Shown here piece by piece: positions 2,078 through 60,900 of a DNA stretch of 64,000 nt. The stretch lies in UHGV virus genome UHGV-1368455, one strand, 5' to 3'. The stretch is from a virus. Numbering within the stretch: position 1 is the first letter of the stretch; the number at the start of each line of letters is the position of its first letter. Both the position numbers and the translations under genes were made by a program. The notes under the pieces are model-generated. The model was not told the DNA's origin and made no database searches. It was given only the letters and a program-made list of their open reading frames with translations.

Positions 2078-2097
2078 TTATCCCTCTACGGGGTAGC
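2078..2097 (+). promoter_or_regulatory. intergenic motif copy (T variant) TTATCCCTCTACGGGGTAGC, containing mini-hairpin CTAC-GGG-GTAG; followed by an unusually GC-rich 50-bp spacer
   Basis: Same 20-mer recurs intergenically at 18047 and 29510, with a variant at 10753, all in the gene orientation. Confidence 0.5.
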
Positions 2098-2148
2098 CCG
2101 ACAAGCAAGGCGAAGCGGAGCGTAGCCTGTGTTTAAGCTATAATTGCT

Positions 2149-10752: not shown

Positions 10753-10770
10753 ATCCTTCTACGGGGTAGC
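10753..10770 (+). promoter_or_regulatory. intergenic motif copy, variant ATCCTTCTACGGGGTAGC followed by CTTTTT
   Basis: Lies in the 317-bp portal-scaffold intergenic region, in gene orientation. Confidence 0.5.
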
Positions 10771-18046: not shown

Positions 18047-18066
18047 TTATCCCTCTACGGGGTAGT
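18047..18066 (+). promoter_or_regulatory. intergenic motif copy (T variant) TTATCCCTCTACGGGGTAGT, flanked by inverted GATTAT/ATAATC
   Basis: Located 14 nt after the upstream stop and 24 nt before the 1200-aa gene. Confidence 0.5.
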
Positions 18067-29469: not shown

Positions 29470-29509
29470 TTTATTGCTATTAGTAATAATAATAGAAACC
29501 GATGTATGA

Positions 29510-29529
29510 TTATCCCTCTACGGGGTAGC
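29510..29529 (+). promoter_or_regulatory. intergenic motif copy (T variant) TTATCCCTCTACGGGGTAGC
   Basis: In the 270-bp intergenic region after the giant gene. Confidence 0.5.
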
Positions 29530-29671
29530 TCAGCAACTATAACGACATTAATGGTATTAGCTATTTAGAGCTGCTATAATGTTTTAGTATGGTAGGCTTA
29601 TAACTTAATCAAGTATTAACTAACAACCGTTGACAAAGCTAAAATCAGCTTAGTTGTTTTAGCTCGTTGGG

Positions 29672-29686
29672 CTTCCCCGTAGGGAG
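29672..29686 (-). promoter_or_regulatory. degenerate inverted motif copy CTTCCCCGTAGGGAG in the same intergenic region
   Basis: Reverse-orientation variant 145 bp downstream of the 29510 copy. Confidence 0.4.
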
Positions 29687-39742: not shown

Positions 39743-40426
39743 ATGAGCAGTATTGCACAACTTGTTTCAGAGATTGCTCATTCCGTAAAGCAACCTGATA
39801 GTGTTCCTGTTCGTAGAGCTATTAAACTTGGTATAATTCATGCTCGAAACGAAGTCATAAGACGTAGTTTTGCTAATCATAATTATACTGACAAAGTTCT
39901 ACAACAACGTTTTAAACTTACTCTTATTGATGTTCCTGACGGTGACCTTTATGGTTCTGATAAAGTTGTTACATCTCAAGTTAAAAGAACTATTAATAAA
40001 GTTCCTCGTCCTGTAAGACTTACTAATAATCTTCCTTTTCATTCTGTTCGTACTGCTGGTGTACGAAATCCTATTGAAATAGCTTTTGTTAAAGAAGCTA
40101 CTGCTAAATATTATAATGCTCTACCTGGGTTTTGTCCTAATGTTAGTTATGATTATATTAACGAATATATCTATGTGAACTCCCCCGTAGAGGGACAACT
40201 TGCTTCAATTAGTGCTATTATTGTTGAATCTGTATTTGAATATCCTCATATTATAGAAACTGAAACTGTTGAAGGTAAACTTGATATAGATACTATTGAT
40301 GATAATGATGAATTTTTACTACCTGAAGATATGATTACTACTGTTAAACAACTTATTCTTTCTACTTGGAATCCAGATATTATTCGTGATACTAATGAAG
40401 TTCCTACTCCTAATATAGTACAATAA
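39743..40426 (+). CDS. hypothetical virion protein (227 aa)
   Basis: ORF; contains an in-frame motif copy (SPVEG). Confidence 0.5.
   Translation: MSSIAQLVSEIAHSVKQPDSVPVRRAIKLGIIHARNEVIRRSFANHNYTDKVLQQRFKLTLIDVPDGDLYGSDKVVTSQVKRTINKVPRPVRLTNNLPFHSVRTAGVRNPIEIAFVKEATAKYYNALPGFCPNVSYDYINEYIYVNSPVEGQLASISAIIVESVFEYPHIIETETVEGKLDIDTIDDNDEFLLPEDMITTVKQLILSTWNPDIIRDTNEVPTPNIVQ
40180..40195 (-). repeat. dispersed motif copy (CTCCCCCGTAGAGGGA), in-frame SPVEG; 20-nt identity with the copy at 57394
   Basis: AACTCCCCCGTAGAGGGACA is shared with 57394-57413. Confidence 0.9.
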
Positions 40427-41355: not shown

Positions 41356-42169
41356 GCGTATAATTGCTAAAATAGACAATGATTTCAATCCTGATAATAG
41401 TGATTGGATTCCTCGTGTTGGAGCATGGTGTATTGACGCAATGTCTATGCTCGATTGTCTTTGTACTAAACGTACTAAGAAAACTATTACTGTTAAAAAC
41501 AGAATAGCTTATGTTGGTTGTCCTATTAATAATATGAATATCAAAATATATGATTCTAATGGTTGTGAAATAGAAGAAGCTAATAATAAGAAATGCGGAT
41601 GTAATAATCCCTCTACGGGGGAGGTTGAACAATCTACAACGACAAAAATTAGTACGGCAGTTAGTCGTTATGAAGCCAATGCGCCTATTACAAAAGCTCC
41701 TGATTATTTATTAGCTGAAACTCTTAATGATAAAGAATGGCCTGGACGTTATAGAATTAATGAATTTAATTATGTTAATGGACAACAAAATATTAATAAA
41801 AATTATGTTATTACTGGAAATGATAAAATAGAACTTAATTTTGATACTAAATGTATTACTCTCGAATATGATACTATTGAAACTGCTCAAACTCAATTTG
41901 GTTGCGAACTTCCAGTTATTCCTAACAATGGAATACTTATTGAAGCTCTAACTTATTATTGTATGTATAAGATGTTATGTAGAGGTTATAAACATCCTGT
42001 ATTTAATCTTGCAGCAAGTCAATATGGTACTAATCCTTATTATATATGGACACAACTTAAAGATGAAGCTAAACGTTCTGTTATAGCTAATAGAGTTGAT
42101 ACTGATGAAGATATTAGTAAAATGTTTCGTAGTGCTTTTTATATTGATACTTTTGACCCTCGTAGATAA
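41318..42169 (+). CDS. hypothetical protein (283 aa)
   Basis: ORF; contains a motif copy encoding NPSTGEVEQ. Confidence 0.5.
   Translation: MFVMQNKTVTNIERIIAKIDNDFNPDNSDWIPRVGAWCIDAMSMLDCLCTKRTKKTITVKNRIAYVGCPINNMNIKIYDSNGCEIEEANNKKCGCNNPSTGEVEQSTTTKISTAVSRYEANAPITKAPDYLLAETLNDKEWPGRYRINEFNYVNGQQNINKNYVITGNDKIELNFDTKCITLEYDTIETAQTQFGCELPVIPNNGILIEALTYYCMYKMLCRGYKHPVFNLAASQYGTNPYYIWTQLKDEAKRSVIANRVDTDEDISKMFRSAFYIDTFDPRR
41608..41623 (+). repeat. dispersed motif copy TCCCTCTACGGGGGAG; extended about 32/36-nt identity with the copy at 53961
   Basis: TAATCCCTCTACGGGGGAGGTTGA identical in both; both encode NPSTGEVEQ. Confidence 0.9.
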
Positions 42170-45100
42170 TGGCACAAATAATTCCCAAACTTAATCTTAA
42201 CAAACATCCTTCAGAAGTACTTAATGGAAGTTTGATAGATGCTACTAATATTATTGTTAGTAACGACAATGCTGTTATACAAACTGAGCCTCAACTTGAT
42301 ACATCTGACATTAATAATCAACTAATAAATCTTATTGGTAGTCGTTCTTATTCTATTAAATATTGTATTAATTGTAATAAAGAATTAATTATATTTGTAT
42401 TATTTAATGATGATGCTGACAATATATCTTTATATAGATATAATGAAGATTATAATGAAATTAAATATGTTACTAAAACAGATTATCATGGAGGTGAATT
42501 ACTTGGAACTTTTACTTATAATTTTAATAATCTTATAATTGCTTTTAGCGAATACTTTGAAGATGATAGTAAGAACGTTCCATTAAAAACTATTAATCTT
42601 GGCAAGTGGAACGAAACTATAAATGATAATGATGTTAATCAATTAAATAATTCTAAAATACATCCTTGTAATCCTGAAGTTAAAATTCCTAATATTACTA
42701 CTTCTTATGTTAAAGGTAATTGTTATAAAGGATGGTATTTTATTTTTATTCGTTATAAAATTGATAGTAATACTTATACTCAATGGTTTAATACTAATGA
42801 ATATATTTTTATAGATACTTTTACTAATACTAATTTATATAAAAGTTATATCAGTTCTGATGTTAAAAATATTGGTAATAAGAAAAATACTTGGAACTCT
42901 TTTTATAATTATATATCTGATGATACTGATATAAGTTTAATTACATTACAATGTGATGTAACAAATAGGGATACTAAATATAAATATTATCAATTAGGTT
43001 TTGTTATTAATAGAAAAGATACAACTAAATGTTATCGAAGTGAAGATATTGATATTAATAATAGTACTTTTATATTTAATAATAATTTAGTTGTAGAAGA
43101 AGGTTTAATCAATATGATTAATACCTATACTAATTATTATAATGTTAAATCATTAACTGCTGTTGGAAATAGATTATTTATTGGAAACTATAAAGAAAAT
43201 AATTTTGAAAAAGATATTATTAATTCACTTAAAAATATTAATTTATCAGTTTCTTTTATTCCTTCTGAAAATAATACCGATACTCAAGATATAGAAACAA
43301 GAGCAGAACAAGAATTAACTTGTACTGTATATTGTACTAACAGAACAAGTAATAATCAAGTTAATCTTATTGCTAAACTTTGGAATAATCAACAAGATGG
43401 AATGATTTATTATACTGGTAGTCAAATGCCTCTTGTTAATAAAAATCATGACGATGTAGATATACATACTATGGGTCAATGTAAAATTAAATATCATTAT
43501 CAAGGTAAAGATGTTACTGAAATTGTTGATGCTAAAAATATTATAGTTGCTCCATTTGAAAATAAAGTTATTAACGGACAATCTAATCAAGGACGTATAT
43601 TTATTCTTAAAGATGGAGAACTTATAGAACATGAGCCAGATGGTCCAGATATAAATACTGTTAGTTTATTAAGTTTCTATACTAATAAAGTTTTTGGAGA
43701 AATAGCTATGTCTTATACTAATTGTGATTTTACTCATACAGAAGTTGGTGTTGATGGTGGAGAGATAGAATCTTCTACTAATATACTTAATACATCAGGT
43801 TTAAGACCTAATAATCCATATAACTTTTTTATTCATTTTATTGATAAATATGGATTATATACTGATGGTTTTAATATAAATAATTTTAATCTTAATACTT
43901 CTGAAAATAATTTTATTAATAATATAGGAGATAAAATTATTATTACTCCTAATGATGATAATTCATATATTGCTAAATTTGTTCTTGATAATATTCCTGA
44001 ACAATATGTTGGATGGTTTATTTCTTATGAAAAAATTGAACGTTATATTAAATATACAGGATTTATTGGAGGTAATGGTGAAATACAAGAAGATAGTGAA
44101 GATGCGAGTATTGAAATAAATAAAACTTCTTATATAGCTGAAGATATTAAAAGAGATTCTACTAATCCTTGGCAAGGAAAACGTGGCAATAATCAAAATT
44201 TTATTAGCAATGAACTTAATTTTCTTGATAGTATTATTACAGATTTTGATATTGCAAGATTTTATAATACTACTGTTACAAGAACAAAAGGAAATAATAA
44301 TATAGCAAAACTTACCTATAATAAAACTGATAATGCATATATAGATATTCCAATTATTAGTAAACATTTATTAGTTGCTGATAGTTATAATAATATTGGA
44401 GGTGAAACTAAATTTCAATTAGAGTTAAATGGTGTCGCTGAAGTTATTACTTATTCTTATATAGTTGAACTTATTAAAAGTGATAAAACTAATATTTATA
44501 ATAATATTAATAAAACATTAATTCCTTGTTCTGAAATTAAATATGAAACTGGAGAAATAAATGTAAATACTAAAGATTCTTTTCATAGTGAAATTCATGT
44601 TTACGACTACAAAGAAAGTACTTATTGGAATGATACTCTTAAATATTTTCAAAGTTCTGGTGATTCAAGACCTGTTATTCATCCTGTTTTTTGTAAAGTT
44701 CAACAAGCGTTTGTAGATATTCCTTGGGAAAGTTTACAAATTAATAATAAACCTGAAATTATATTTTTTCCTAATAAAGGACTTAATACTACTGATGAAT
44801 ATAAAAAATCATTTATAATCGGAACTATTATTGAAGCAAAAAATACTGTTGATTTATTTCAACAGAAAAATAATACTGTTTGGAATGCTTGTCCAAAAAC
44901 TATTACTAATTATTATGAAAGTAAAAACTACGCAAAAGATTATCCTAAAACTATTCGTCGTAGTAATATTATTCAAGATGAATCTCGTAATAATGCTTGG
45001 AGGCAATTTAAACTTGAACAATATAAAAATATTACTGAAAATAAAGGCGATGTAACCAAACTTATTGCTATCGGTTATTATTTTATTGTTCACTGTCAGC

Positions 45101-46053
45101 ATAGTATGTTCTTATTTAATGGTACTGATAGTATTGAAGCTAAAGAAAATAATATTCAACTTTCTTCTGTTGATTTTTGGGATACTCAATATAAAGAAAT
45201 TGTTACAAGCGATTTAGGTTATGCCGGACTGCAAAAAGAATACTCTGGTATAGTTGGTAGCTTTGGTTATATATTTTATGATTCTGATAGGCAGCGTTTT
45301 TATCGTTATGATAATGGTCAAGTAGCTTATATTGACGACGATATAAATAATTATATTCGTAAACTTAAAGGATATAATGTTCATCTGGTTGATGATAAAC
45401 GTCGTTATAGAATACTTATTAATTTTAATAAAAATGGTGAAAACGATATAGTTATAAGTTATAACTATCATACTAATACTTTTGTTTCTCGACATACGTA
45501 TAATTATGTTAGAGGATATAGTACTAAAGAAAATACTTATATAATTGGTAAGTATGATGATAATATTGGTAGAACTAATATCAATATTTATAAAGAAGCA
45601 TTATATTACAACTCTGTTGTTAATGTAATGCTTAATGCTAATTATATAAGTATGAAATATATTGAATACATACTTTATAAAGTTGCCAAAGTTACTCCCG
45701 TTGAACTTAACAATTACTCCCCCGTAGAGGGATTGAATGACCTTTATGCTGCTGATGGAGTTCGTGTATATAGTACTCATTGTGATACTGGTGTACTTGA
45801 TACTACTTTCAAAGATGCAACTATCGAAGTTAATAAAGTTATGAATTATGCTAAACCTTATTGGAGATTTGGTAATTGGCATCTTAATGCTCTTCGTAAT
45901 AGACTTGCTGAATATCTACAAAATAAATATGGGGATGATGAATGTAGTCGTATATTTGGTAATTGGTTTGTAGTTGAATTTCATATTAATTCTAACGAGC
46001 AAGTTGAGTTAGAAACTCTCGATGCAGTTTATAATAGTGCTGAAAATAAATGA
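42169..46053 (+). CDS. giant 1294-aa virion protein (tail hub/muzzle or cargo candidate), Asn/Tyr/Ile-rich
   Basis: Long ORF with coupled start (ATGG overlap); no catalytic motif recognised. Confidence 0.55.
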   Translation: MAQIIPKLNLNKHPSEVLNGSLIDATNIIVSNDNAVIQTEPQLDTSDINNQLINLIGSRSYSIKYCINCNKELIIFVLFNDDADNISLYRYNEDYNEIKYVTKTDYHGGELLGTFTYNFNNLIIAFSEYFEDDSKNVPLKTINLGKWNETINDNDVNQLNNSKIHPCNPEVKIPNITTSYVKGNCYKGWYFIFIRYKIDSNTYTQWFNTNEYIFIDTFTNTNLYKSYISSDVKNIGNKKNTWNSFYNYISDDTDISLITLQCDVTNRDTKYKYYQLGFVINRKDTTKCYRSEDIDINNSTFIFNNNLVVEEGLINMINTYTNYYNVKSLTAVGNRLFIGNYKENNFEKDIINSLKNINLSVSFIPSENNTDTQDIETRAEQELTCTVYCTNRTSNNQVNLIAKLWNNQQDGMIYYTGSQMPLVNKNHDDVDIHTMGQCKIKYHYQGKDVTEIVDAKNIIVAPFENKVINGQSNQGRIFILKDGELIEHEPDGPDINTVSLLSFYTNKVFGEIAMSYTNCDFTHTEVGVDGGEIESSTNILNTSGLRPNNPYNFFIHFIDKYGLYTDGFNINNFNLNTSENNFINNIGDKIIITPNDDNSYIAKFVLDNIPEQYVGWFISYEKIERYIKYTGFIGGNGEIQEDSEDASIEINKTSYIAEDIKRDSTNPWQGKRGNNQNFISNELNFLDSIITDFDIARFYNTTVTRTKGNNNIAKLTYNKTDNAYIDIPIISKHLLVADSYNNIGGETKFQLELNGVAEVITYSYIVELIKSDKTNIYNNINKTLIPCSEIKYETGEINVNTKDSFHSEIHVYDYKESTYWNDTLKYFQSSGDSRPVIHPVFCKVQQAFVDIPWESLQINNKPEIIFFPNKGLNTTDEYKKSFIIGTIIEAKNTVDLFQQKNNTVWNACPKTITNYYESKNYAKDYPKTIRRSNIIQDESRNNAWRQFKLEQYKNITENKGDVTKLIAIGYYFIVHCQHSMFLFNGTDSIEAKENNIQLSSVDFWDTQYKEIVTSDLGYAGLQKEYSGIVGSFGYIFYDSDRQRFYRYDNGQVAYIDDDINNYIRKLKGYNVHLVDDKRRYRILINFNKNGENDIVISYNYHTNTFVSRHTYNYVRGYSTKENTYIIGKYDDNIGRTNINIYKEALYYNSVVNVMLNANYISMKYIEYILYKVAKVTPVELNNYSPVEGLNDLYAADGVRVYSTHCDTGVLDTTFKDATIEVNKVMNYAKPYWRFGNWHLNALRNRLAEYLQNKYGDDECSRIFGNWFVVEFHINSNEQVELETLDAVYNSAENK
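45717..45732 (-). repeat. dispersed motif copy (CTCCCCCGTAGAGGGA), in-frame SPVEG
   Basis: Exact 16-mer. Confidence 0.9.
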
Positions 46054-46634
46054 AACGCAAGAAAGTTAAAAGAGACAAAGCCTTTTTAGGTGCAATCATT
46101 GGAGCTGTTGCTGGTCTTGCAGGCTCTGCGATTGGTGGTTCGATTAGTAATAATAAAGCTAAAGCTCAACTTCGTGCTCAACAACGAGCACAGAATAAAC
46201 AAGATACTCTCGCTATGGCTCAAAATCTTAGTGCAAGCTATGGTAATCAAGAGTATGTAGATGAATTTAATAAACGTGTAACTTTTAAGAATGGTGGTAA
46301 AATGAAAAAACGTAAATGTAGTGCTGGTACTAAAGTTTCTATTGCAAAAAGATTTGCTTGTGGAGGACGAAAGAAAGCCGAATGGGGAGCAAGCGATACT
46401 TCTGCTCTTATTAGCGGTCTTAGTAGAGGTCTTGGTAATATTGTTTCTGCTTCTTTGTCTGGCAATACCGGTATAGTAAAACAAGGAGATATGTTTGCAG
46501 GTACTCCTAAAGAACATCTTGAAAAACCTGATTATATTACTACTCCTGCTAATAATGTTTCTGATAATGACTATTTGTACCGTGTTGGTGGATGCAAACG
46601 CCGTAAGGCTAAATGTGGTACTAAAAAGAGCTAA
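46050..46634 (+). CDS. highly basic Gly/Lys/Arg-rich protein (internal virion or DNA-binding candidate)
   Basis: MKRKKVKRDK..., KKRKCSAGTK, CKRRKAKCGTKKS. Confidence 0.5.
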   Translation: MKRKKVKRDKAFLGAIIGAVAGLAGSAIGGSISNNKAKAQLRAQQRAQNKQDTLAMAQNLSASYGNQEYVDEFNKRVTFKNGGKMKKRKCSAGTKVSIAKRFACGGRKKAEWGASDTSALISGLSRGLGNIVSASLSGNTGIVKQGDMFAGTPKEHLEKPDYITTPANNVSDNDYLYRVGGCKRRKAKCGTKKS

Positions 46635-46748
46635 TATCAGCTCCATATTCCTATATTAATTTTGCCCCGATTAATTTATCCAGCCATGATAATTTAACAT
46701 GGCACAGGGCATGAGAATGTTTCATAATAAATAATATTTTTTTTATTT

Positions 46749-48365
46749 ATGACTAAAGTTAAAAGACCTAATATAGTGCGTGGAGGAATTGCTGTTCCTC
46801 TTGGACGTAACTATTATTATATGCGAGGTAGAAAACATGAACAAGGTGGTATTGATATTGGTAAAAATCCTCGTACAGGACTTGAAGTTGAAGACGGTGA
46901 AGTTATGCACGTTGGTTCTAAAGATATTAAAATATTTAGTTCTCTTCCTTTTCTTAATGGTAAATCCCCAGCTCAAAGAGTTATGAGTGGTGAAAATTCT
47001 AATGCTGTTTTTAATGCTCAGGAACGTTTTAAGAAAAGAAATAAGATTAATGATGATGGTACTAAAAAGAAACGTATGGGAGGATTAAATAGAAGTAAAG
47101 ATTATGGTTCAAAATCTAAACCTTATCCTAATGTTAAGAAAAGCGATTTTGCTGGAGGTGGCAGAAGTTATCCTATTCCTACTAAAGCCGACGCTCGTGA
47201 CGCATTAAGACTTGCTGGACTACATCATAGACCTGATGTTAAAGCTAAAGTTTATCGTAAATATCCTGAACTTAGAAAGAAAGCTAAAGTTGGTGGTTTA
47301 TATTCTGTTACAGTTAATGGAGAAACAAAATTATATCAATATCCCTCTACGGGCAAGATAAAGAAGTCTAAAACGACTAAATCGGCTGGACGTTCTAAAT
47401 TTGCTGGAGGAGGTGATACTAAAGATAAAGATAAAGAAAAAGATAAAGTAAAAATTATAACTGCTAAAACTTTTCCTGAAGTTAATCCATTTACTTTTAC
47501 TGAAAATCCTCCTGCTACTACTCCTACCGAAAATGTTGAAGCAACTATTAATGCTAATGTTCCTCGTGCTTTTGCAAAACGTAATAGAGATATAACTGAC
47601 CCAGAAAAACTTAATATTGCTTATCAAAAAGCTTCAGGTACTTATCCTAATTGGTTTCAACGTACTTATAGAAATATAAGAAATTATGTTAATGAACACC
47701 CCGATACTGTCAATGAAGGTATTGGACTTGCAAGTAATGTTGTTTCTTCTCTTATAGGTAATAGTATAAATAGACGAGTGCTCAATAGTCTTCGTTATTC
47801 TCCTGCTCCTATTCCTCAACGTGCTGCAAAACTTAAAACTCGAATCAATATTAATCCTCAACTTGATAGAATGAGAGAAAGTCTTGCTGCTTATGAACGA
47901 GCTATCGATACAAATACTGGTAGTTCTCAAGTTGCTCTGGCTCGCAAACAGAGAGCAAGGTTAGCAAATGTTCTTTCTACTAATGAACTTTATGGTAATA
48001 AAGAAAATACTGAGACTTCTCTTATTAATCAAGATAGACTTAATCAACAAGAAGTTGCTAATAGAAATATTGATGCTTATAATACTTGGGCACAAGGTAA
48101 AGCTGATTTTGAAAATAGTATAAGACAACAAAAAGCTGAAAATAATATTGCTTTGATGAATAATCTTAATGCTGGAGTTCAAAATGTTATTAATAATATT
48201 CAGCAACGTAGAACTGAAGGAAGAAATATTAAAGCAATGCTTCTTGCTTATCCTGATTTACCTGCTGAACAACTTCTTGCTTCTGGTCTGATTACACAGA
48301 ACGAATACGATACTTATCGTAAAGGTTATCCTCTTAAACGTAAAAAGAATAATAATAACGAATAA
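46749..48365 (+). CDS. basic, low-complexity internal virion (cargo/ejection) protein candidate, 538 aa
   Basis: K/R/G-rich N-terminal half; contains a degenerate motif copy. Confidence 0.5.
   Translation: MTKVKRPNIVRGGIAVPLGRNYYYMRGRKHEQGGIDIGKNPRTGLEVEDGEVMHVGSKDIKIFSSLPFLNGKSPAQRVMSGENSNAVFNAQERFKKRNKINDDGTKKKRMGGLNRSKDYGSKSKPYPNVKKSDFAGGGRSYPIPTKADARDALRLAGLHHRPDVKAKVYRKYPELRKKAKVGGLYSVTVNGETKLYQYPSTGKIKKSKTTKSAGRSKFAGGGDTKDKDKEKDKVKIITAKTFPEVNPFTFTENPPATTPTENVEATINANVPRAFAKRNRDITDPEKLNIAYQKASGTYPNWFQRTYRNIRNYVNEHPDTVNEGIGLASNVVSSLIGNSINRRVLNSLRYSPAPIPQRAAKLKTRININPQLDRMRESLAAYERAIDTNTGSSQVALARKQRARLANVLSTNELYGNKENTETSLINQDRLNQQEVANRNIDAYNTWAQGKADFENSIRQQKAENNIALMNNLNAGVQNVINNIQQRRTEGRNIKAMLLAYPDLPAEQLLASGLITQNEYDTYRKGYPLKRKKNNNNE
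47342..47357 (+). repeat. degenerate motif copy TCCCTCTACGGGCAAG (in-frame PSTGK)
   Basis: 13/16 match to the consensus. Confidence 0.6.
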
Positions 48366-48371
48366 ATTACT

Positions 48372-51059
48372 ATGGCTCAAGTACAATATATAACTCGTGA
48401 TTTTATACCTCGCGTAGACTTAACTACTCTTGGTAATACATTTAATACTCTTGAACAAGGTCATCAAGCTGCCGTACAGGCAGCTTCTGACCTTAAAGCT
48501 ACTATTGCTAAATTGCCGATGGATGCTCAAGAAGATGGTTTTAAAGAACAACTTGTTAATGAAATAAATCAAACTATTGATGATAATACTCTTTATGGTA
48601 ATTCTTATGGGGCTTTAGACAATCTTGTTACACAAATTGGAGATATTCAATCTGATGGTAGAATTATAGGTAGACTTCGTAATCATCAAGCTAAAGTTGA
48701 ATATGATGCTAAAGTAGATGCTATGGCTATTCCTGATGGAATGAAGCAAATGTATAAAGAAGAAAATCCTTATTATTATGAAGACGGAGAAGTTGATGCT
48801 AATACTGGACGTGTTCTTCCGGGTGAGATGTGGGAAGCTAAAACTAATCCTGTTACTACTGTTCCAGAAAATCAGATTCAAGCATATGCTTTACAAATAG
48901 CTGCTAAAGATGCTGGTAGTGGAGAAACTGTTAGTTTTCTTGACGTCAATGGCAATCCTACTACTGACCCAAATAAATCTGAAGACGGTTCTATGTACAA
49001 AAAAGTTGGAACTCGATGGGAACGTCTTAGTGAAGATAAAATTAGAGAAGCATATAGAGTAGCTATTAATAGTATTCCAGGAGCTAAAGATAGTCTCGAC
49101 CAAGATTATCGTTATGCTACTTGGCAATATGATAAACTTGTTAAAGATGCTGAAGCTAAAGGCGGGAATATCGCTCCTTATGTAAAAGGATATACTGATA
49201 AAAATGGTAATATTTATACAAGAGACCAATGGCTTAATAATAAAATAAATAATTTTGCTGATGTTGCTGCATATAATCATGTTTATAGTTCAGTAGATTT
49301 TGGTACTGCTTTACAAAATAGAAAAGCAAGACAATCTGCTGCATCTGCATCTGGAAGTGGAGGGCTTATAGGAGCTTTACAAGGAAATAATAGACAACTT
49401 GGAAATATTATTAGTGGTACTGAAGAGACTGAAAGCAATGCTTTTGCTGGAGTTACTAAAGCTAAAAATGATGCAAATAGAACTGGTCTTAATATAGCTA
49501 AAACTTTTGGAGGTAATCTTTTTAGAGAAGCTGATAGTATTAGCGATATTATTAGAACTGTTCGTCAAAGAGACCCATCTGTTAAAGGTCCAGGAGGTAC
49601 AGCTAATTATATTATTAGTCATTATGGCAAAAATATGACTCCACTTCAAAAGTCTCAACTTAGAAATGCTCTTGTTGGTTATGTTCAAGCTAACAAACAA
49701 TATAACCAAATGATTAAAAGTGCTGGTGGTAATGCTGATGGACTTAGATTTAGTGCCAATGCTGCTAATAATGAATATACTAATGACAATAAATATGGTA
49801 GAGCTGTTATTAGAGAATTAAATAATATATTTTCTAATAATAATAGTGTAGATTATGAAATAGGTTCTGATGTATTTTCAGCTCTTAAACATTTATATAA
49901 AACTGATGACCTTAGAAAAGTAGGTCTTAATTATTCTCGTAATGAAGATGGAAATTATATTGTTACTTTTACTCCTCAAAATAGAAATTTAATGCCTAAA
50001 TTTGACAGTCTTATAGCACAAGCTGATAGTCAAGTTGATGGTAGTTTTAGTGGATGGTTTAAAAAAGCATTTACGGGCAGAGCCGCTTCCGGTAATTATG
50101 TAGTTCATTTTCATAATAAGAATGGAAGAACTAATACAAGAAATATTAGTGGAGGAGGAGCTTTAGCCAATGCTTATGAAAATGGTAGTAATGCTGCTTC
50201 TAAAGCAGAAAGTAAAGCTGGAGTTGCTAAAGGAACTCGTAGTTTTAGTACTGGTAATTATGCAAGTTTTGGTGCTGCTTATGCTGCTATGCATCCAGAA
50301 ATAGCTCAACAAACAGGTGAAACTCTTCAACAGTTTATAGATAGACAAAATGAACAAGTTGATTTAGGTTTTGCTCAAGGTAATTTTGATTCTGGCCAAA
50401 TACAGTATCTTGATGAATCTGGTAGAGCTTTTATTGATATTTCTAAAAATCAAGATGCTAAAACTCTTATACAAAATATGTATGCTGATGATACTCAGCG
50501 TAAAAAAATAAAGAGAGCTATTAAAATTCCAACAGGTACTGAAGCTGGAGGAACACAAGGATATGTTCTTTCATTTACTGTACCTAAAGGATTTGGCAAT
50601 AAACATTTTAAAGAAGGACAAAAAGTAAATATAATTGTTAGTGGTGTTAGTGAAGAAGAAATTAATTTTAATCCTTCTATGAATCCATCTGTTCTTGCTT
50701 CTAATGCTATTGTTACAAGTAGAGCTACTGGAGGTCCTGTTGAAATTCAAGGTTATGACGCCAATCTTGGTAATACTGATTTAGTTCCTACTAAAAATGG
50801 AAAATATGCATCTACTTTTATGGGTAATGCAAAGAATATGACTCCTGAAGAAGCTGAATATTATATTACTCTTATGTACACTCTTCAACAATTCAAAGGA
50901 CAACTTGAAAGTGGAGCATATAATCTTGCTGACCCTAATCAAGTAACTCTCGTTAATAATAAATTTGACAATCTTGTAAATGAATTATCAAAAGTTACAG
51001 ATACAAGTAGAAATAGTGTTGCTACTGCTGTCTTTAATATGATTAAAAATGGAGAATGA
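48372..51059 (+). CDS. large virion protein (895 aa), cargo/ejection candidate
   Basis: ORF in the block of large genes upstream of the polymerase-like gene. Confidence 0.5.
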   Translation: MAQVQYITRDFIPRVDLTTLGNTFNTLEQGHQAAVQAASDLKATIAKLPMDAQEDGFKEQLVNEINQTIDDNTLYGNSYGALDNLVTQIGDIQSDGRIIGRLRNHQAKVEYDAKVDAMAIPDGMKQMYKEENPYYYEDGEVDANTGRVLPGEMWEAKTNPVTTVPENQIQAYALQIAAKDAGSGETVSFLDVNGNPTTDPNKSEDGSMYKKVGTRWERLSEDKIREAYRVAINSIPGAKDSLDQDYRYATWQYDKLVKDAEAKGGNIAPYVKGYTDKNGNIYTRDQWLNNKINNFADVAAYNHVYSSVDFGTALQNRKARQSAASASGSGGLIGALQGNNRQLGNIISGTEETESNAFAGVTKAKNDANRTGLNIAKTFGGNLFREADSISDIIRTVRQRDPSVKGPGGTANYIISHYGKNMTPLQKSQLRNALVGYVQANKQYNQMIKSAGGNADGLRFSANAANNEYTNDNKYGRAVIRELNNIFSNNNSVDYEIGSDVFSALKHLYKTDDLRKVGLNYSRNEDGNYIVTFTPQNRNLMPKFDSLIAQADSQVDGSFSGWFKKAFTGRAASGNYVVHFHNKNGRTNTRNISGGGALANAYENGSNAASKAESKAGVAKGTRSFSTGNYASFGAAYAAMHPEIAQQTGETLQQFIDRQNEQVDLGFAQGNFDSGQIQYLDESGRAFIDISKNQDAKTLIQNMYADDTQRKKIKRAIKIPTGTEAGGTQGYVLSFTVPKGFGNKHFKEGQKVNIIVSGVSEEEINFNPSMNPSVLASNAIVTSRATGGPVEIQGYDANLGNTDLVPTKNGKYASTFMGNAKNMTPEEAEYYITLMYTLQQFKGQLESGAYNLADPNQVTLVNNKFDNLVNELSKVTDTSRNSVATAVFNMIKNGE

Positions 51060-51062
51060 GAT

Positions 51063-54000
51063 ATGCCTAATAATGTAATTACAGGAAATTCTTTCGTAGA
51101 TAAAATACGTCCTTATATTCCTAATCCCGAATATAATCCTAAAACCAAGAAAGGTCGTGTTCAACCTCCTATTCTTGTTGATAGTTCTGCTCCAGCTATT
51201 AATGATAACTTTATGTCAAGAACTATGAATAGTGTTAATAGACTTACTTTTACTGGAAGAGAACTTGGTTTTACTAATGAAGAAATAGAGAGTGATGCCG
51301 ATTTAGGCATTACTCTTTCTCCGTATAATACTGTAGATGAACTTAATAAAGCAAGAGCAGATAGTCAATCTGCTCTTTCTCAGTTTGGTAACTTTCTTGC
51401 TCAAGCTGGTTTAGGTGAAGTTCTTGTTGGTACTATGGAAGGATTTGGTAATATCTTTGATGGAGCCAAACAATTTGTTACTGGAGACAATTATGAATCT
51501 TCTGCATGGACTCGTTTTTGGGAAGATATACATAATGATATTAAAGATAAATTTAAGATTTATCGTGAGAACCCTAACGCTGATTGGGACTTGTCTGACT
51601 TTGGTTGGTGGATGGATAATGCTGTCAGTGTTGCTACTACTGCTTCACTTATGATACCTGCTGCTGGTTGGGCAAGAGGTATTTCTATGCTTGGTCGTAT
51701 AGGTAAAATAGGAAAAGGAATTAATGCTGTAACTCGTTGGGCAAGTAAAGGTCTTAGTAATTGGAGCAAAGCCGCAAGAACTGGTAATAAGTATGCTCAA
51801 ATAAGAGCTGCAGCTTCTATTAATAAAACAATTAATAATGCCGCTGAAATAACTGGTACTGCTCTTCTTAGTAGAACAGGTGAAAACTATATGGAAGGTC
51901 GTCAAGTTTATGATGAAGTTTATACTAATAGTAAAGAGAATCTTGATAATATGCCAGATACTGAATTTCAGAAGTTTCTTGCTCGTCATCCTGAATTTAG
52001 AAACCAATCTAAAGATGACATTGCCAAAGAAATAGCTCGTCAATCTGCTAACGAAACTTTTTATAATGATTATTGGATGTTACTTATGGATATTCCTCAG
52101 TTCAAAGCTCTTGGTAGTTTATGGGGAAAACCTATGCAACGTGCTTCTAAAGCGTCTGAACGTATTGCTGCTGAAAATGTTAGACGTACTCTCGCTGGTA
52201 AAAAAGCTGAAGACCTTATAAAAAATAATCTTCTTAATAGAACAAAAGAAGGTTTCAAATATGCTTTCAAACATCCTACTAAAAGTGCTGTCATTACTCA
52301 ACTTGGTGAAGGCTTTGAAGAAATGTATCAAGGTATTCAAAGCGAAAAAGGAATGGAAGTTGCTACTAAATATTTTGACCCATCTTTTACTCCTCGTTCT
52401 CTTACTTCTTATTTTACTGACGGCAGTATATGGGAACAAGGATTTTGGGGTTGGATTGGTGGTATGGCTTTTACTCCTGCCGGACAAGCAATTCAAAAAG
52501 GCTCTCATGCTATTAAAGGTTTATATAATAAAAAACACATGACTGCCGAAGAATATGAACAATGGCAACGTGCTAATCGTAATATAGGAGCTGAAAAAAT
52601 TAATAATGTTACTATTACTGCAAAAGAATTTATTGACAATATGAATAAAATTAACGAAGGAAAAAATCCATTTAATTTTGTTGTCAATAAAGATACTGGT
52701 ACTAAGATTATTAAAGATGGTCAATTAGTTGAAGAAACTATTGACGATGAACAAAAAGAATTACTGAAACAAGAAGCTATTGATAAATTTGTAACAGATA
52801 CAGCTTTCGATGCTATTGATAGTGGTGTTTATCCACTTATGCAAGAAATACTTAATAGTTCTGAATTTGACCAATATCTTACTAAAAATGGTGCTACAGT
52901 TAACGGCAATGATAAAGCTATAAGCAAAGAAATTTCTAATCGTATGGAAGCTATTTCTGATATGTATCAGAACGAACTTCGTAACGTCAATAATCTTACC
53001 GATAAAGCAAATCCATTTGCAACCATTGCTGCTGCTCGTAGTTTAGTTAGAACTAAATTACAATTAGAAGATTATGAAAATCAGTTAGGTAATATCGCTG
53101 CTCGAATGGAAGAAGCTAACGATAACCAAACTGATTTTAATCCTTATATTGAACGTAGAAAATATAATTATGCTAAACGTCAATTAGATAATATTGAAAG
53201 ACAAGAACAAATTATTGCTACTCAATATGCCAATAAAGAAATTGGTGCATCTGCTCGTGACCAATATATGAAAGAACTTGATGCACAAAGAAAAGTATGG
53301 CAAGATTATATTATGAATAATACTTCTAAAGGTGCGATAGAAGAAACTATGAGAACTATTCAGGAAGATGAGAGTATTCCTGATAATATGAAAAAAGATT
53401 TTTATACTATTATGAGAAACTTGGATAAACAAATTGCTTCTGCTACTGAAGTGTCTATTCCAAGTGATACTATTAAAGAACTAATAGATGAAGAAATAAC
53501 TATTGAATCAAGACGTAATTATACGCAAGCTCAACTGCCATTAGATGAAGCTGATTATAAAAATGTTTATAATGAGTTTGCAATGGCTATGGACCAAATG
53601 TATCGTAAACGTATTGATGGAGATATTGATACTGTTAAAAATTATCTTAATAATGCTAAAGATTTAGATGAGGCTATTAATAATGTTCTATCTGAAAATA
53701 CAGGTATTAGTAAAGTCGATAACGCTCTTAAATCTATTCGTTATGGTTATTTTAATCAAAACAAAGATATGAGAGGTCAAATTACTAATAATCTTCAAAT
53801 GGAACTTATTATTGAAGAAGCTCGTAAAAATCGTAAAAAAGCTGAAAATTTACAAGCTGAAGCTGAACAAAGTGGTACTGTTCTTCCTGAAAGCGAAGCT
53901 GGTCAACAACAAGAGCAAGAAGAAGCTGCTATTAATCAACAAGAAACACAAGATGAGAATGGTAATCCCTCTACGGGGGAGGTTGAGCAAACAACAACAG

Positions 54001-57000: not shown

Positions 57001-57776
57001 ATAATGGTAAAATTAATGATGCTTTTTTCAATTCTGTAAATAAAGTTCTCGATACTACACAAAGTTATGACAATCAACAAACTCGTATGGAAGAATTTGT
57101 TGTAGAATGTCTCACTCAACCATTATTTACTGAATGGCTTAATAATACTCAATATGATAATGAAAGTAGTGTTCAAGGTATTAAACAAAGCAAAAAATCT
57201 ATACTGCAAAAATTAATGGATATTTTGCTAAATTTATTTGGTATTAAAGACCGAAAAATAAATGATTTTAGTATCTTAGCACGTGAATATGTAATACTTG
57301 GTAAAGGTAATAATCCTACTACTAATAATGATTTATTTAGTCAACATCTGACTACAACATCGACTGCTGCAAATACTGTCGATACAGATAACACAAACTC
57401 CCCCGTAGAGGGACAGCCGGCATCTCCTACTGCTATTGATAATCAACCGCCTGCTATTAACCCTGCTACTGGTGAAAATGTAGAAACTACTACAAATGAT
57501 TATATTCCTATTGATGAAGACGGTGTATTTACTATGCCTGACGATGAAGATTATGACCCTGCTGATGGTCTTAAAGCTGCTACTGATTTGATTGAAAATA
57601 ATGATACTACTGCTGAAATATATTCTGTTCCTATTGCTGATGGTGCTGATATTAGCACATTTGGCGTTCGGACGGTTAACGATATGAGCGATTTTGTTAA
57701 TACGTTCCCGATGCAATATCGTGCCAATATTAAGCAAATACTGGCTTCTAATGAACTTAACTATACTTGTGCTTAG
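51063..57776 (+). CDS. giant 2237-aa virion (cargo) protein; contains an HExxH motif (LHENIHRLF, about 56880-56906) and two motif-encoded linkers
   Basis: Long uninterrupted ORF; motif copies at 53966 and 57398 lie in Q/T/N/P-rich linkers. Confidence 0.55.
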   Translation: MPNNVITGNSFVDKIRPYIPNPEYNPKTKKGRVQPPILVDSSAPAINDNFMSRTMNSVNRLTFTGRELGFTNEEIESDADLGITLSPYNTVDELNKARADSQSALSQFGNFLAQAGLGEVLVGTMEGFGNIFDGAKQFVTGDNYESSAWTRFWEDIHNDIKDKFKIYRENPNADWDLSDFGWWMDNAVSVATTASLMIPAAGWARGISMLGRIGKIGKGINAVTRWASKGLSNWSKAARTGNKYAQIRAAASINKTINNAAEITGTALLSRTGENYMEGRQVYDEVYTNSKENLDNMPDTEFQKFLARHPEFRNQSKDDIAKEIARQSANETFYNDYWMLLMDIPQFKALGSLWGKPMQRASKASERIAAENVRRTLAGKKAEDLIKNNLLNRTKEGFKYAFKHPTKSAVITQLGEGFEEMYQGIQSEKGMEVATKYFDPSFTPRSLTSYFTDGSIWEQGFWGWIGGMAFTPAGQAIQKGSHAIKGLYNKKHMTAEEYEQWQRANRNIGAEKINNVTITAKEFIDNMNKINEGKNPFNFVVNKDTGTKIIKDGQLVEETIDDEQKELLKQEAIDKFVTDTAFDAIDSGVYPLMQEILNSSEFDQYLTKNGATVNGNDKAISKEISNRMEAISDMYQNELRNVNNLTDKANPFATIAAARSLVRTKLQLEDYENQLGNIAARMEEANDNQTDFNPYIERRKYNYAKRQLDNIERQEQIIATQYANKEIGASARDQYMKELDAQRKVWQDYIMNNTSKGAIEETMRTIQEDESIPDNMKKDFYTIMRNLDKQIASATEVSIPSDTIKELIDEEITIESRRNYTQAQLPLDEADYKNVYNEFAMAMDQMYRKRIDGDIDTVKNYLNNAKDLDEAINNVLSENTGISKVDNALKSIRYGYFNQNKDMRGQITNNLQMELIIEEARKNRKKAENLQAEAEQSGTVLPESEAGQQQEQEEAAINQQETQDENGNPSTGEVEQTTTANTDTTIATDNTNLERAESQQAQATVGAPEQEVETRQTGHEHDVNPMQVDVAQDEAEVQRKLAQTIDANSLRAELAARKYVMQIGFKEGAKLDAITQALQNKDESKLAEFIQEITDFLTKQGFDDDISKIMAQRALVSTINMYGAMNEKSAFGRLATQLAIGLNEAAAKKYSATELINGKGLDEVVDAFMEEFVKVTNNLKLSNGKYIINLKTLFNYLIHNESIDGKTAVQIYNNLNEYIASSVNTKYIFTGYDTKRGLYQTGEEFIHQVEEQRKQEISSRNQMHIHLIEPEQRNKEFNDAMLAAANGAPSHIEEQRNKAGELTNLNVIVDWEKNGKKKSTKIGILRTVHYSQDARKIYPNSHYSGFRNEITRNDDGTVSLDCDNLFYAICDATTTDGFNLRNAIADYFEKRLALLQDESLTPAGLNKALNALITPEFISSIVDNPLIEELINQGRYKPYVEAEDIEDIHDDEKSMRRLTAIRLAEDISKVLFYADGYAENNVASEVNDFAVDSYTLRERYKTWKDKVYDNYTHTYELQKAINNNENKSATINVNVGFVTRLNEAPEDSQPNIADQDFNPIPNTDGYTPFVYYSNGKLVDEYGNDYGYAPSGFGDYSMGFIVHTDGVQSFIAACRTTANVKNTKMHKAVIAEVADIITAQINNINNSNHADNFNVVKERLEELFGPGGLFYFGNINLVTDSNERFITIQYKQGRGKDAKYTNITTFHSINKDGITPSNAITIYDNAGKVLTNITSINAETQGILNKLTQTLTDNFVINRSQIGMTKQTKSGGTPRIFTWNGENFIVHLGAKDYTYKNYGDFIFQTAGFTTNLVSKNGSFVTRYIDTRHVTMDTHINKKQKITQKANTAVSDYLYNERNPKRKTADTEEILKRAGVPQEKIDILLGTNSKIPFVTKQISLSNVDDGKTNAFYNKKDKKIYITPRGASVMNGSSTNAIRIILHENIHRLFNSSKYTNAERQRIVTELEDVYNFVRQKFIEEHDNGKINDAFFNSVNKVLDTTQSYDNQQTRMEEFVVECLTQPLFTEWLNNTQYDNESSVQGIKQSKKSILQKLMDILLNLFGIKDRKINDFSILAREYVILGKGNNPTTNNDLFSQHLTTTSTAANTVDTDNTNSPVEGQPASPTAIDNQPPAINPATGENVETTTNDYIPIDEDGVFTMPDDEDYDPADGLKAATDLIENNDTTAEIYSVPIADGADISTFGVRTVNDMSDFVNTFPMQYRANIKQILASNELNYTCA
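53966..53981 (+). repeat. dispersed motif copy TCCCTCTACGGGGGAG (NPSTGEVEQ)
   Basis: Exact; extended identity with the copy at 41601. Confidence 0.9.
57398..57413 (-). repeat. dispersed motif copy (CTCCCCCGTAGAGGGA), in-frame SPVEG
   Basis: Exact. Confidence 0.9.
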
Positions 57777-57909: not shown

Positions 57910-60900
57910 ATGAATTGTACAATTAATGACCTTAATTTATCATTTGATAAAGATAATCGGCTTCGTACCACAATTGGACGTGTGGCTGGTTGGAGTGTTG
58001 ATAAGGCTTATGTCCTTGCAAGTTTTCTTCAAGATGAAAGTTTTAAGAAGTATCTTTCTAAAATGCTTACAGATAAAGATATTATAGGAGGTGCTGCTAT
58101 TGACTTGAAGAATATAACCGATAACGATTATATAAATATTAATCAGAATAAACTTGGTAGTCTGCTTAATGTTTATTATATTGACCATTATCATAGTGTA
58201 AATAATAGTAAAACTAATAAAGCTCTTGGTAGACTCAATGGCTTTAGTAGTGGTACAGCTAAAACTGTGGGCTTAAATTATACAGCCGACCGTATTATTG
58301 ATAAATACTATGACGAATTTGGTAAAGCTAAACCTAAAAAATCACAAGAAATAATTGCTGAAGTTATTAATGATATTGAGCATGAACTTTATAAGCAAGT
58401 TAATTTATTTGCAAATAATGTTATTAGTAGCGATAAATATTCTAAAGCAGCTCGTGATTATGCTCAAAAATTTATAGATATTATTAAACGTATTGAAGAA
58501 AATAATAATAAAATAAAAGAAACTACTATTTTCGCCAATGCTAATAAAAATCAACTTCGTCAATATAATGGTAAAAAAGTTACTGAAGAAGAAAAATCTA
58601 TAATTAAACGACTTACCGATATTGATAAACAATATAAAGAAGAACTCGCTTCGCTTGGTAAAGATAATGCTCGCGCCGCGTTAGACCGTTATGTTATTGC
58701 ACAAAACTTAGTTAATCTTTATGCAAACAATGTTGATGGTGCTTTGAATAAACGTCTTCGTAACTTTGCTAATCTTGTTGCTCAAATGAAAGGAGATACA
58801 AATGGTTGGTTCTTTCAAGTTATGAATACTAAACGTATGACTTCTATTGTTAAAGAATTTAATAATATTGGTGACATAGAAGAATATATTGAACAACAAG
58901 ACGAAAATAATGACAATATTATTGATAAATATAATGGTCAAGATGTAGACCAAACTACTAAATCTTGGGAAGATAGTCTTTATAAATCTTTTAATTCTGC
59001 CATTAGCGGAAAGATGAGAATTATACTTTCTCGTGTTCCTAAACTTTCTTCTCCTTTTAATCCTACTGCTGAAATACAATCGCTTGATACAGAAAATGAA
59101 CTTGGAGTTAAAACCTATATGGATGCTCAATTTATTACTGTTCAAATGTTTAGCTTTGGTGATTTCAGTGATATTGAATCTATGGTTAGAAGCATTGAAC
59201 GTAGAGCCAATACTGTTGAAGAACTTTATGGTATTGGAATGCTTGTTAATCAAATGAAACAAGATAAAGTTTTTGCTAATTATATGTATGCCAATTTCGC
59301 TAAACCTCTTGTTAATAAAACAATGTGTGTTATTAGCGATTTAACTAAAGAAAGTGGTATTACTTTTAATTATAGTAATGCTAATGCTTTCTATTCTACT
59401 AAAATGGCATTTGATATGATGAATAAACTTCGTGCTTCTTATAATACTCAATATGATATTAACGATTATAAAACTATTCAAGCCCTTGGTAATAAACTTC
59501 GCAATCCTAAACTACCAATAGAATTTGATGATACTGAAATTATTTACAATACTTTACTTAAATATTTTCCTAATATTAAACGTGAAGTTTATGATAATTT
59601 TTTACGTGGAATTAAAGATGATAAACGCAATGCTTTAATTAATTTTACTCAAAATCTTATAGCTATTATTAATGGCGCTGGTGCTCTTAAAACTAAAATT
59701 AACACTGCTATTGAAGAATCTAATAGAAAATATAATAATGCTAAGAAAAAGTTTAATCAAGATTATAATGCCTATTTGGAAGCTGGAGATACTCAAGCTG
59801 TTAAGCAAATGAAGTATCCAACTTATCAAGGAGTTGATTATACTGAATATGATTTAGACCCTAATACTCTTAAAGCTGTTATTAGACTTGCAGAAAATCT
59901 TTCAGATTATTCTGCTTCTAAAGCTCGTCTTAATACTGCTAACGCTGAGGGCAATACTGCTTCTGATGTAACTAAAAACTGTTATATAACACGTTTCTTT
60001 GAACAAATTAATGCTGGTACAGAAGAAGATTCTAATGCTGGCCTTCATGCTTTATTAGATTATATAACACAAGGTACTGAAAATGGTAAAGAAAATCAAT
60101 ATTCTAATAATCCTCTTTTCTTTGGTGTTAAAGATGAAAATGGAAGAGTAATTATACCTGGCATGTTTACTCGTGTCGGAGATATATTTAATATTAATAA
60201 AAACGCTAAAGAAATACTTAATTATAGTCTATTTGACGGTACAAAGAATACTCAAAGCGGAAATGGTAGTGGATATGCTTCTATGTCTAAACTTGATTTC
60301 TTTGTTACTCAATATATAGCTTATGCTAATAGCGTTGGAGATATTAATGAGAATGGTATAAATAAGAAAATAGGTAATCTTGACAGTTCTGTTTATGCTA
60401 TGCGTATTGGCAGTGATGCACCTAAAATTTATATGATACGCGCTCCTCGTTATAATTATCGCCAACTTCAATATGCTTTCTATAATCATCTTATGGATGA
60501 ACTTAATATGTATGTTAATAGTCTTAATAAGATATTTAGAAAGAATAATGCTGGAGAATATAAACTTATTACTACTACTAATGGTCTTTATGGTAGAGCA
60601 TTCTTTGATGAAGGTGCTGCTGATAATCTTCGTAAAGACGGAAAGAAAGATATGTCTAAAGCATTTGTTGAAGAAAATAATGGTAGACTTCAACTTGCTG
60701 GTAAAATGTTTAAGTTTCTACGTCTATTTGATGCTAATGGACATAGTGCAGCAACAGATATTGAAACTGTACTATCTCTCTACGGGGGAGTTGATGCGAA
60801 TGCAACGTCGTTATTTATCAAAGACGGCAGAACTAAACTTAAACTTAATAAAGATTATATTAATAGTGAAAATGGTTTTATTAAAGAATTAACTGATGAA

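Follow-up and report, generated by a model that had tools for sequence, protein, structure and literature searches.

A dispersed, family-wide DNA word in the genes and spacers of Intestiviridae crAss-like phages

Short asymmetric DNA words that are hugely over-represented, equally frequent on both strands and placed mostly in genes are exemplified by two systems: the uptake signal sequences (USS) of the Pasteurellaceae and the DNA uptake sequences (DUS) of Neisseria. Their copies occupy tolerated reading frames and variable protein regions, originate in place without insertions or deletions (indels), have a weaker consensus in their flanks and differ between clades as dialects. They are read by the bacterial competence machinery and spread by biased uptake and recombination. 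Here we describe a short dispersed word in a phage, found in a stretch of 64,000 nucleotides (the window) of UHGV virus genome UHGV-1368455 and in its relatives. The major capsid protein encoded in the window is 77% identical to that of Carjivirus communis (p-crAssphage, Intestiviridae), which places the window among the Intestiviridae crAss-like phages; a PHROGs scan recognised nothing beyond this protein. No viruses of the human gut are more abundant than the crAss-like phages, yet little is known of the signals that govern their transcription, replication and packaging.

A dispersed word in genes and spacers

A sequence-only reading of the window had singled out four near-identical blocks in otherwise unrelated genes. 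These are copies of a dispersed family-wide DNA word that is under purifying selection at fixed orthologous positions. Its coding copies occupy variable loops and linkers, use either orientation and several frames, and are spelled by rare codons; copies are alike within a genome, and each clade has its own variant. That the word is a selected recognition site, homogenised partly by ectopic copying, is the reading we favour and, taken whole, consider moderately probable.

The word in the window reads T-CCCTCTACGGGG(G/T)AG: it is 15-18 bases long and GC-rich, in a host window of 30% G+C. Allowing up to two mismatches, 16 copies of the core occur in the 64 kb against 0.00 expected from 100 shuffles, and a 17th, more degenerate copy (three mismatches) lies at 29672. 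Copies lie on either strand; the coding ones use four reading frames, and four spacers between genes contain the word. Coding copies on the plus strand mostly specify PSTGE and those on the minus strand mostly SPVEG, and the word encodes each PSTGE and SPVEG peptide of the window. Rare codons are used throughout: CCC accounts for 5% of proline codons, ACG for 3.8% of threonine, GGG for 2.5% of glycine and TCC for 1.6% of serine codons. Given the peptide PSTGE, these exact codons have a probability of 2e-6, and across the peptides the range is 2e-6 to 6e-6. Rare codons, several frames and intergenic copies together show a signal at the level of DNA, not of peptide. It is scarcely credible, by comparison, that the likeness reflects a peptide motif (PSTGE or SPVEG) or a chance resemblance of low-complexity linkers: while 10 of the 12 coding copies use just two frames, and sites A and B (41609 and 53967) keep their residues through synonymous changes, the last open reading frame (ORF) carries the word in two further frames (60776 and 61222), five copies are intergenic and the rare codons are invariant. 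Frame usage and codon choice refute the peptide-level motif, and the shuffles, with no copy expected, speak against chance.

Beyond the core, the T at position -1 is nearly invariant, and positions +17 to +20 hold a second box, CG.C, with significant information content in the window, in sense-coding, antisense-coding and intergenic copies alike. An (A)CGAC box is seen at fixed spacing after about half of the copies, on any strand and in any frame (e.g., 5614-5617, 41640-41643 and 47374-47377); the extended flanks of relatives and of p-crAssphage differ from it. The intergenic copies use a variant, GGGGTAG.

The word extends well beyond this genome. The exact 15-mer is present in 72 IMG/VR stretches, mostly crAss-like contigs of ~90 kb with 65-78% DNA identity to the window. 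p-crAssphage has 32 copies of its own version, TTCCA-TCCTC(T/C)ACGGGG(G/A)G-T. These occupy both strands and every frame and are found in the DNA polymerase, ligase and tail genes, in those of the capsid module and for RNA polymerase, as well as in 11 spacers; the crAss002 variant is YCCTTTACGGGGGAA. Each clade of relatives has one homogenised dialect, TCCTCTACGGGGGAG, TCTTCTACGGGGGAG, TCCTTTACGGGGGAA, CCTTTTACGGGGCGG or CTCCTACGGGGGG, and a universal core, YYYYY-TACGGGG, underlies them all, the 3' ends varying across clades as GGAG, GGGT, GAGT, CGGAGTGC, GCGG and GGAA. The density in Intestiviridae crAss-like phages is about one word per 3-4 kb. No TACGGGG word occurs in crAss001 (Steigviridae; positions 6000-50000). 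In this phage CTCCAGAAGGAG and its complement are enriched on both strands, though less strongly, with 13 copies in 44 kb of a 9-mer, CTCCAGAAG/CTTCTGGAG, that may be an analogous Steigviridae word. String searches of the literature with six motif variants matched unrelated primers alone, and the word is mentioned neither in two crAss papers (10.1101/2020.03.07.982082; PMC10983915) nor in the results of keyword searches; we found no description of it in the searchable literature.

The four blocks first noticed are present in the window, 2-4 nt downstream of where they had been placed, and share a 15-nt core, CCCTCTACGGGGGAG. The first pair (41605-41640 and 53963-53998) has the layout TAAT + CCCTCTACGGGGGAG + GTTGA(A/G)CAA(T/A)C(T/A)ACAAC, encodes NPSTGEVEQ(S/T)TT as reported and is identical at 33 of 36 nt, where ~32 had been counted. 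The second pair (40178-40197 and 57396-57415), AACTCCCCCGTAGAGGGACA, is indeed identical at 20/20 nt and encodes NSPVEGQ. Identity beyond the core, on which the proposal of a spreading cassette leaned, was assessed by column permutation across all 120 copy pairs in the window. It is marginal for 41609/53967, which match at 24 of 36 flank positions (p=0.017) with a contiguous 9-nt extension that is not significant (p=0.17); for 40180/57398 the 5-nt extension is at chance level, and the pair is outside the six best. The extra identity of 41609/53967 stems partly from the longer consensus found in about half of the window's copies (T at -1; CG.C at +17 to +20), the second box being the source of the '...ACAAC' tail of the block. 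Identity beyond the core is much weaker evidence than the recurrence of the core. What the sequence-only reading picked up is real and belongs to something far larger, a cis-element of the Intestiviridae that is under selection and evolves in concert.

Age, gain and homogenisation of the copies

Most copies are old. Sites A to E (C, 47343; D, 45717; E, 57398) and the copies at 5583, 13836, 18051, 2082 and 60776 are orthologous in relatives whose genomes are 45-78% identical in protein. Site A keeps its position in ~52 of 66 related genomes, with protein identities as low as 47%, and also in p-crAssphage; site B is common to five lineages at ~45% amino-acid identity, and site E to four lineages. 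Orthologous copies have an intact core and flanks that are only 40-65% identical; in the conservation profile, position -1 stands at 95% and positions 12-15 at 70-81% identity, the copy sets for both measures having been gathered with a pattern that fixes positions 1-11 and leaves these others free. An intact core between diverged flanks at orthologous positions means that the copies are old and held by selection on DNA. The idea of recent copies thus fails for 41609, 53967 and 57398, which are ancient. The sequence-only reading had held that the same residues with diverged DNA in relatives would mark old vertical sequence: the residues are the same and the flanks have diverged, while the core DNA is identical, a combination that indicates purifying selection on the DNA word itself.

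The remaining block, copy 40180, is present in the window and in a 93%-identical relative, L126, and patchily in three distant relatives. L126 (OHIY01000024.1, 93.7 kb) is a human-gut metagenome contig with ~93% DNA identity to the window over 25.4-49.8 kb, and was the sole close relative found. The loop that carries copy 40180 follows a conserved YDYINEYIY(I/V)N and has the same length in 24 aligned orthologues (IPENSK, CINDSE, TTKNEK and others), so nothing was inserted there. The word recurs in this loop in L143, with the frame unchanged (SSPVEGT), and in L114 and L117, with another frame (PPRRK, PARRR), by either recurrent gain or patchy loss; across all four lineages with the word the length of the loop is unchanged, and copy 40180 differs from the relatives' loop at 9 of 15 core positions. 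Copy 61222 is absent in 8 of 8 relatives aligned there, in a region that varies in length and offers no clean empty site.

These data bear on the proposal of a tiny mobile cassette, of the type of miniature inverted-repeat transposable elements, Rickettsia palindromic elements or mitochondrial GC clusters, that inserts in frame into linkers and has spread recently. Such a cassette would suit a GC-rich word in a genome of 30% G+C, its place in variable loops and linkers, the lineage-specific copies at 40180, 61222 and 10755, the composites of motif and hairpin module inside coding sequence in p-crAssphage and crAss002 (see below), and the segments of 0, 9 or 12 nt that separate core and old flank at site A. 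We nevertheless think it very unlikely: most copies are orthologous over the protein divergence given above, and perfect conservation over such a distance needs selection anyway; 40180 was gained without a change of length; and to our knowledge the word has no transposase-like partner. The predicted in-frame insertion polymorphism of 15-36 nt did not appear, there being no indel at 40180 and the other three copies being orthologous. Target-site duplications are likewise lacking at 40180 and 61222, where trivial AAC/TAAC recurrences at unequal offsets alone are seen, and direct reading of the flanks of both copies showed no terminal inverted repeats. Insertion into linkers is thereby largely refuted for the four blocks. 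Targeting by a diversity-generating retroelement, or by a site like those for initiation of mutagenic homing, was rejected as well: repeats are at most 40 nt, with no long template/variable repeat pair and no adenine-specific variation.

Templated repair or gene conversion between copies, the other route by which the blocks had been proposed to spread, is supported and not proven. Within one genome, non-orthologous copies in the same frame have derived core variants and 9-12 nt of flank in common, and these differ between genomes (Table 1): GGGCGGAGTGC...AAG is found at A, B, C and E in L077/L122, L128 and L013/L068, against GGGGGAGGTTGARCAA at A and B in the window. Site E of 3300029904_000006, on the other strand, also has GGGCTGAGTGC, and site A of _029825 shows the GGGCAAG form seen at site C in the window. 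Derived blocks thus seem to pass from one non-orthologous site to another, and they differ by genome. Over 13 genomes, the flank identity of non-orthologous copies is 8.43/23 within a lineage against 7.70/23 between lineages (permutation p<0.0005), and the excess persists without sites A, B and C.

Table 1. Codons or forms at sites A, B and C in the window and in relatives
Genome	Site A	Site B	Site C
Window	AAT CCC TCT ACG GGG GAG GTT GAA CAA	AAT CCC TCT ACG GGG GAG GTT GAG CAA	CCC TCT ACG GGC AAG ...
3300029904_000006 (L077, L122)	...ACG GGC GGA GTG CAA AAG	...ACG GGC GGA GTA CAG AAA	...ACG GGC GGA GTG CGT AAA
L128	GGC GGA GTG CCA AAG TCT	outside locus	GGC GGA GTG CGT AAG TCT
_029825 (L013, L068, L094)	GGGCAAG form	GGGCGGAGTGCA	GGGCGGAGTGCA

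Several points weigh against the reading as selected and copied DNA. The conservation of positions 1-11 is partly by construction, as the search pattern fixes them. The within-lineage excess is confined to motif positions 12-17 and, genome-wide, ends at +2, and selection toward a lineage-specific consensus, without copying, would give the same pattern. The covariation test of sites A and B gives p=0.068 over six lineages that are not independent. The putative conversion tracts contain synonymous differences (GAA/GAG and CAA/CAG, affecting one and the same codon in two lineages), so the tracts are old or patchy, or there was parallel selection on an extended site. Lastly, the function assigned to the word is inferred.

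Some of these points lend themselves to a rival in which no DNA is copied: point mutation would lead each copy toward a long lineage-specific optimum (~25-40 nt) set by the reader of the word. We take such convergent selection, acting by itself, to be possible but doubtful. It accommodates an excess that adjoins the core, an extended consensus that differs by lineage (TTCCA...CTACCCT in p-crAssphage; CG.C at +17 to +20 in the window), the synonymous differences inside the shared A/B blocks, and the repeated appearance of the word in one loop in different frames. It is strained by the A/B/C blocks, which extend to +9 to +12, a stretch without consensus among the genome's other copies; by some five sites in one genome that would each need 4-6 parallel substitutions (from GGGGGAGgtt to GGGCGGAGTGC), opposite-strand copies included; and by the 9 of 15 core positions that set copy 40180 apart from the loop of its relatives. 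Sites A, B and C share +1 to +12, but the genome-wide excess ends at +2, and the permutation tests give p=0.068 for A/B across lineages and p=0.017 for the window pair. We take short-tract ectopic copying to be the most economical reading.

On this reading, homogenisation would be aided by occasional ectopic copying of short tracts (~25-35 nt), by gene conversion or template switching, anchored perhaps on the invariant T-YYY-TCTACGGG half of the word. Such copying would account for the shared flanks of sites A and B, and new copies would come about by replacement in place within length-constrained loops, not by insertion. A hotspot of recombination between genomes at the copies was rejected: among 353 ends of segments of at least 97% identity, 3.1% lie within 60 nt of a copy (3.0% expected) and 5.1% within 200 nt (8.2% expected), leaving a small excess within 30 nt (3.1% against 1.5%).

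One site has also changed strand. At the site orthologous to 13836 in L035 (contig 3300045988_090575), the word lies on the opposite strand, with NPSTGEET for ISPVEG; this inverted site has an A/B-type flank, GAGGAAAC.

Features of the window and possible use of the word

Table 2. Copies of the word and associated module in the window
Feature	Position	Strand	Context
Exact core	1403..1417	-	Last codons of 146-aa ORF 981-1421, SPVEG
Intergenic GGGGTAG variant	2082..2096	+	Starts 12 nt past stop of ORF 1480-2070; part of a composite element, orthologous composite in L003, L014, L020
GC-rich module AGGCGAAGCGGAGCGTAGCCT	2108..2128	+	GCGAAGC and GCGGAGC mini-hairpins, after copy 2082; folding z = -0.6
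Exact copy	5583..5597	+	136-aa ORF, PSTGE; ORF just downstream a putative large terminase (gene order with p-crAssphage)
Intergenic CCTTCTACGGGGTAG, 2 mismatches	10755..10769	+	Between putative portal ORF and 437-aa ORF; missing from relatives L014 and L051
Exact copy	13836..13850	-	About codon 29 of 382-aa ORF after major capsid gene, SPVEG; kept as far as p-crAssphage
Intergenic GGGGTAG	18051..18065	+	18 nt past stop, 24 nt before ATG of 1200-aa ORF; long form ATGATTAT-core-N16-ACGATATTAATG; kept in L054 and p-crAssphage; hairpin z = -2.1
TCCTCTACGGGGGAG, 1 mismatch	23293..23307	+	2591-aa ORF, SSTGE
Intergenic GGGGTAG	29514..29528	+	Long-form paralogue of 18051, ATGATTAT-core-N14-ACGACATTAATG; kept in L126
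Degenerate inverted copy, 3 mismatches	29672..29686	-	143 nt downstream of copy 29514
Exact copy	40180..40194	-	Tail ring protein 2 (227 aa), NSPVEGQ, hypervariable 6-residue loop
Site A, exact	41609..41623	+	Tail ring protein 1 (283 aa), NPSTGEVEQ
Site D, exact	45717..45731	-	1294-aa ORF, SPVEG; nearly universal among relatives
Site C, variant CCCTCTACGGGCAAG	47343..47357	+	538-aa ORF, PSTGK
Site B, exact	53967..53981	+	2237-aa ORF, low-complexity E/Q/T/P-rich linker
Site E, exact	57398..57412	-	2237-aa ORF, NSPVEGQ
CTCTCTACGGGGGAG	60776..60790	+	>2072-aa ORF, a putative virion RNA polymerase (gene order); other frame (LSLYGG)
Exact copy	61222..61236	-	Same >2072-aa ORF, yet another frame (LPRRG)

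The copies at 18051 and 29514 share ~50 nt, ATGATTAT-core-N14-16-ACGAYATTAATG (Table 2). These paralogous elements span 18043-18092 and 29506-29553 and are both intergenic; the ATG at 18090 opens the 1200-aa ORF, possibly as a leaderless start, and the ATG at 29551 opens a mere 5-codon ORF. Copy 29514 and the degenerate inverted copy 29672 flank 143 noncoding nt (29514-29686) in a 270-nt spacer before the ORF at 29740, and L126 keeps both. In the region 39743-42169, Pfam places the 227-aa and 283-aa proteins in crAss tail ring proteins 2 and 1; their presumed p-crAssphage counterparts, by gene order, are annotated as an IHF-like protein (gp52) and a tail tubular protein (gp50). IHF-like neighbours as readers of the word were rejected, given the Pfam assignment as tail ring proteins.

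Orientation separates genes from spacers. Context was unique for 195 copies. The coding ones divide into 81 same-sense and 82 antisense, the intergenic ones into 23 same-sense and 8 antisense; 10 of these 23 begin 10-19 nt past the upstream stop codon. Spacers hold 16% of all copies, against 3-8% of the DNA being noncoding. Sigma-70-like sites are as numerous as in shuffles, and none falls on 2082, 10755 or 18051; in phage phi14:2, an early-promoter motif was not found (10.1101/2020.03.07.982082).

Some GC tracts contain GCGAAGC/GCGGAGC mini-hairpins, and in the window, p-crAssphage and crAss002 nine of ten such tracts directly follow a copy of the word. The copies with this module are 2082 in the window, six in p-crAssphage and two in crAss002, two of them inside coding sequence. 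Module positions include 2108-2128 in the window, 6043, 28188, 44936 and 95887 in p-crAssphage (L118/L119), and 4225 and 47859 in crAss002 (L123). The hairpin types match the N4 virion-RNA-polymerase promoters (checked in NC_008720, L124), a match that serves as a lead only.

The word itself could act as a hairpin of RNA or single-stranded DNA (UCCCUC-UAC-GGGGGA, with G.U pairs), be it a terminator, a 3' stabiliser like the repetitive extragenic palindromes (REP), or a promoter or priming signal of the N4/G4 kind. The motif strand folds at -4 to -9 kcal/mol, better than its complement; its 5' arm varies between C and T alone across clades; intergenic copies are co-oriented with genes a short way past stops; the intergenic variant 18051 alone reaches z = -2.1; and the downstream mini-hairpins are of N4 promoter type. 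Still, for the TCCCTC/GGGGGA hairpin the coding copies fold no better than shuffles (z -0.2 to -1.0), and the same is true of the 2082 composite; in half of the coding copies the word is antisense to the mRNA; two variants, GGGCGGAG and CCTTTTACGGGGCGG, disrupt the stem with no compensating change; and an Rfam scan gave no match, while no intrinsic terminator (hairpin and T-run) lies at the copies. We judge this alternative quite unlikely. A tRNA scan found none, and a likeness to helix 14 of 16S rRNA (CUCC-UACG-GGAG) was judged coincidental.

Our favoured reading is a sequence-specific recognition site whose use in spacers is orientation-dependent and linked to transcription. The word would be a cis-acting site for a lineage-specific, probably phage-encoded factor, with which its 3' half may co-evolve, and the intergenic GGGGTAG subclass, at times with the GCGAAGC/GCGGAGC module, would be the orientation-dependent and probably transcription-linked form. 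Nicking or priming is a more novel possibility. Taken furthest, a dedicated phage system would cut or prime at ...TCTACGGG and repair from other copies, making the word a self-homogenising cis-element in essential genes; we hold this to be rather unlikely. If true, the sites would be rewritten by the very system that uses them, whether for replication priming, for nicking or for entry of the virion RNA polymerase, on either strand.

The arrangement of copies in p-crAssphage (L118/L119) may be noted here. All six copy pairs less than 500 bp apart (22899/22927, 28075/28172, 50971/51404, 58514/58725, 68493/68759 and 95743/95864) are inverted, never direct. Both repL genes have a divergent copy pair upstream, one of which is at a published predicted origin (PMC10983915).

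Significance and comparison with known systems

About 30 copies per genome of a word of 15-27 nt, at fixed places in capsid-module, tail, DNA polymerase and virion RNA polymerase genes, with clade-wise divergence, imply that something must read it. The word is a concrete handle for finding its reader and a marker for classifying Intestiviridae lineages. It also offers a natural case of a DNA signal that constrains protein loops, and one that may be homogenised by short-tract copying.

Several described systems share part of this pattern. The nick sites of T5, phiKMV-like phages and tf are also specific consensus sites, of 9-19 nt, scattered over a phage genome, and the phiKMV consensus, CGAC-N5-CCTACTCCGG, loosely resembles the bipartite arrangement of core and CGAC; the known nicks of T5 and phiKMV fall on one strand only and number 4-14, whereas the crAss word is on both strands. 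The early virion RNA polymerase promoters of N4 have GC-GAA-GC and GC-GGA-GC mini-hairpins identical in type to those of the module, and both phage groups inject a virion RNA polymerase; the crAss enzyme, however, is unrelated in fold, and the module accompanies a minority of copies. REP and bacterial interspersed mosaic elements are dispersed short repeats that often lie just after stops, and the HIP1 word of cyanobacteria lies in genes in all frames and is kept beyond codon needs; yet both are palindromic, HIP1 being 8 nt long and REP being extragenic and moved by RAYT transposases, while the crAss word is non-palindromic and its hairpin lacks statistical support.

Yeast mitochondrial GC clusters, which spread by gene conversion, and Rickettsia palindromic elements are likewise short GC-rich repeats of AT-rich genomes that occur in frame in genes. 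These are optional insertions of 30-150 nt that add residues; the crAss word instead replaces residues in loops of fixed length, at orthologous sites. The stoperators of cluster A mycobacteriophages and the promoter sets of T7-like phages comprise 20-35 dispersed asymmetric sites of 13-23 bp, which diverge together from one related phage to another and, within a genome, all fit a single phage-encoded reader. They are almost all intergenic and oriented with transcription, in contrast to the crAss word, two thirds of which lies in coding sequence without orientation bias there. From USS and DUS the word differs in belonging to a lytic or plasmid-like phage for which no uptake step is known; like them, it would arise in place without indels and has a weaker flank consensus, and it proved to be strongly over-represented, to occur equally on both strands, to sit in genes at conserved positions and to form clade dialects.

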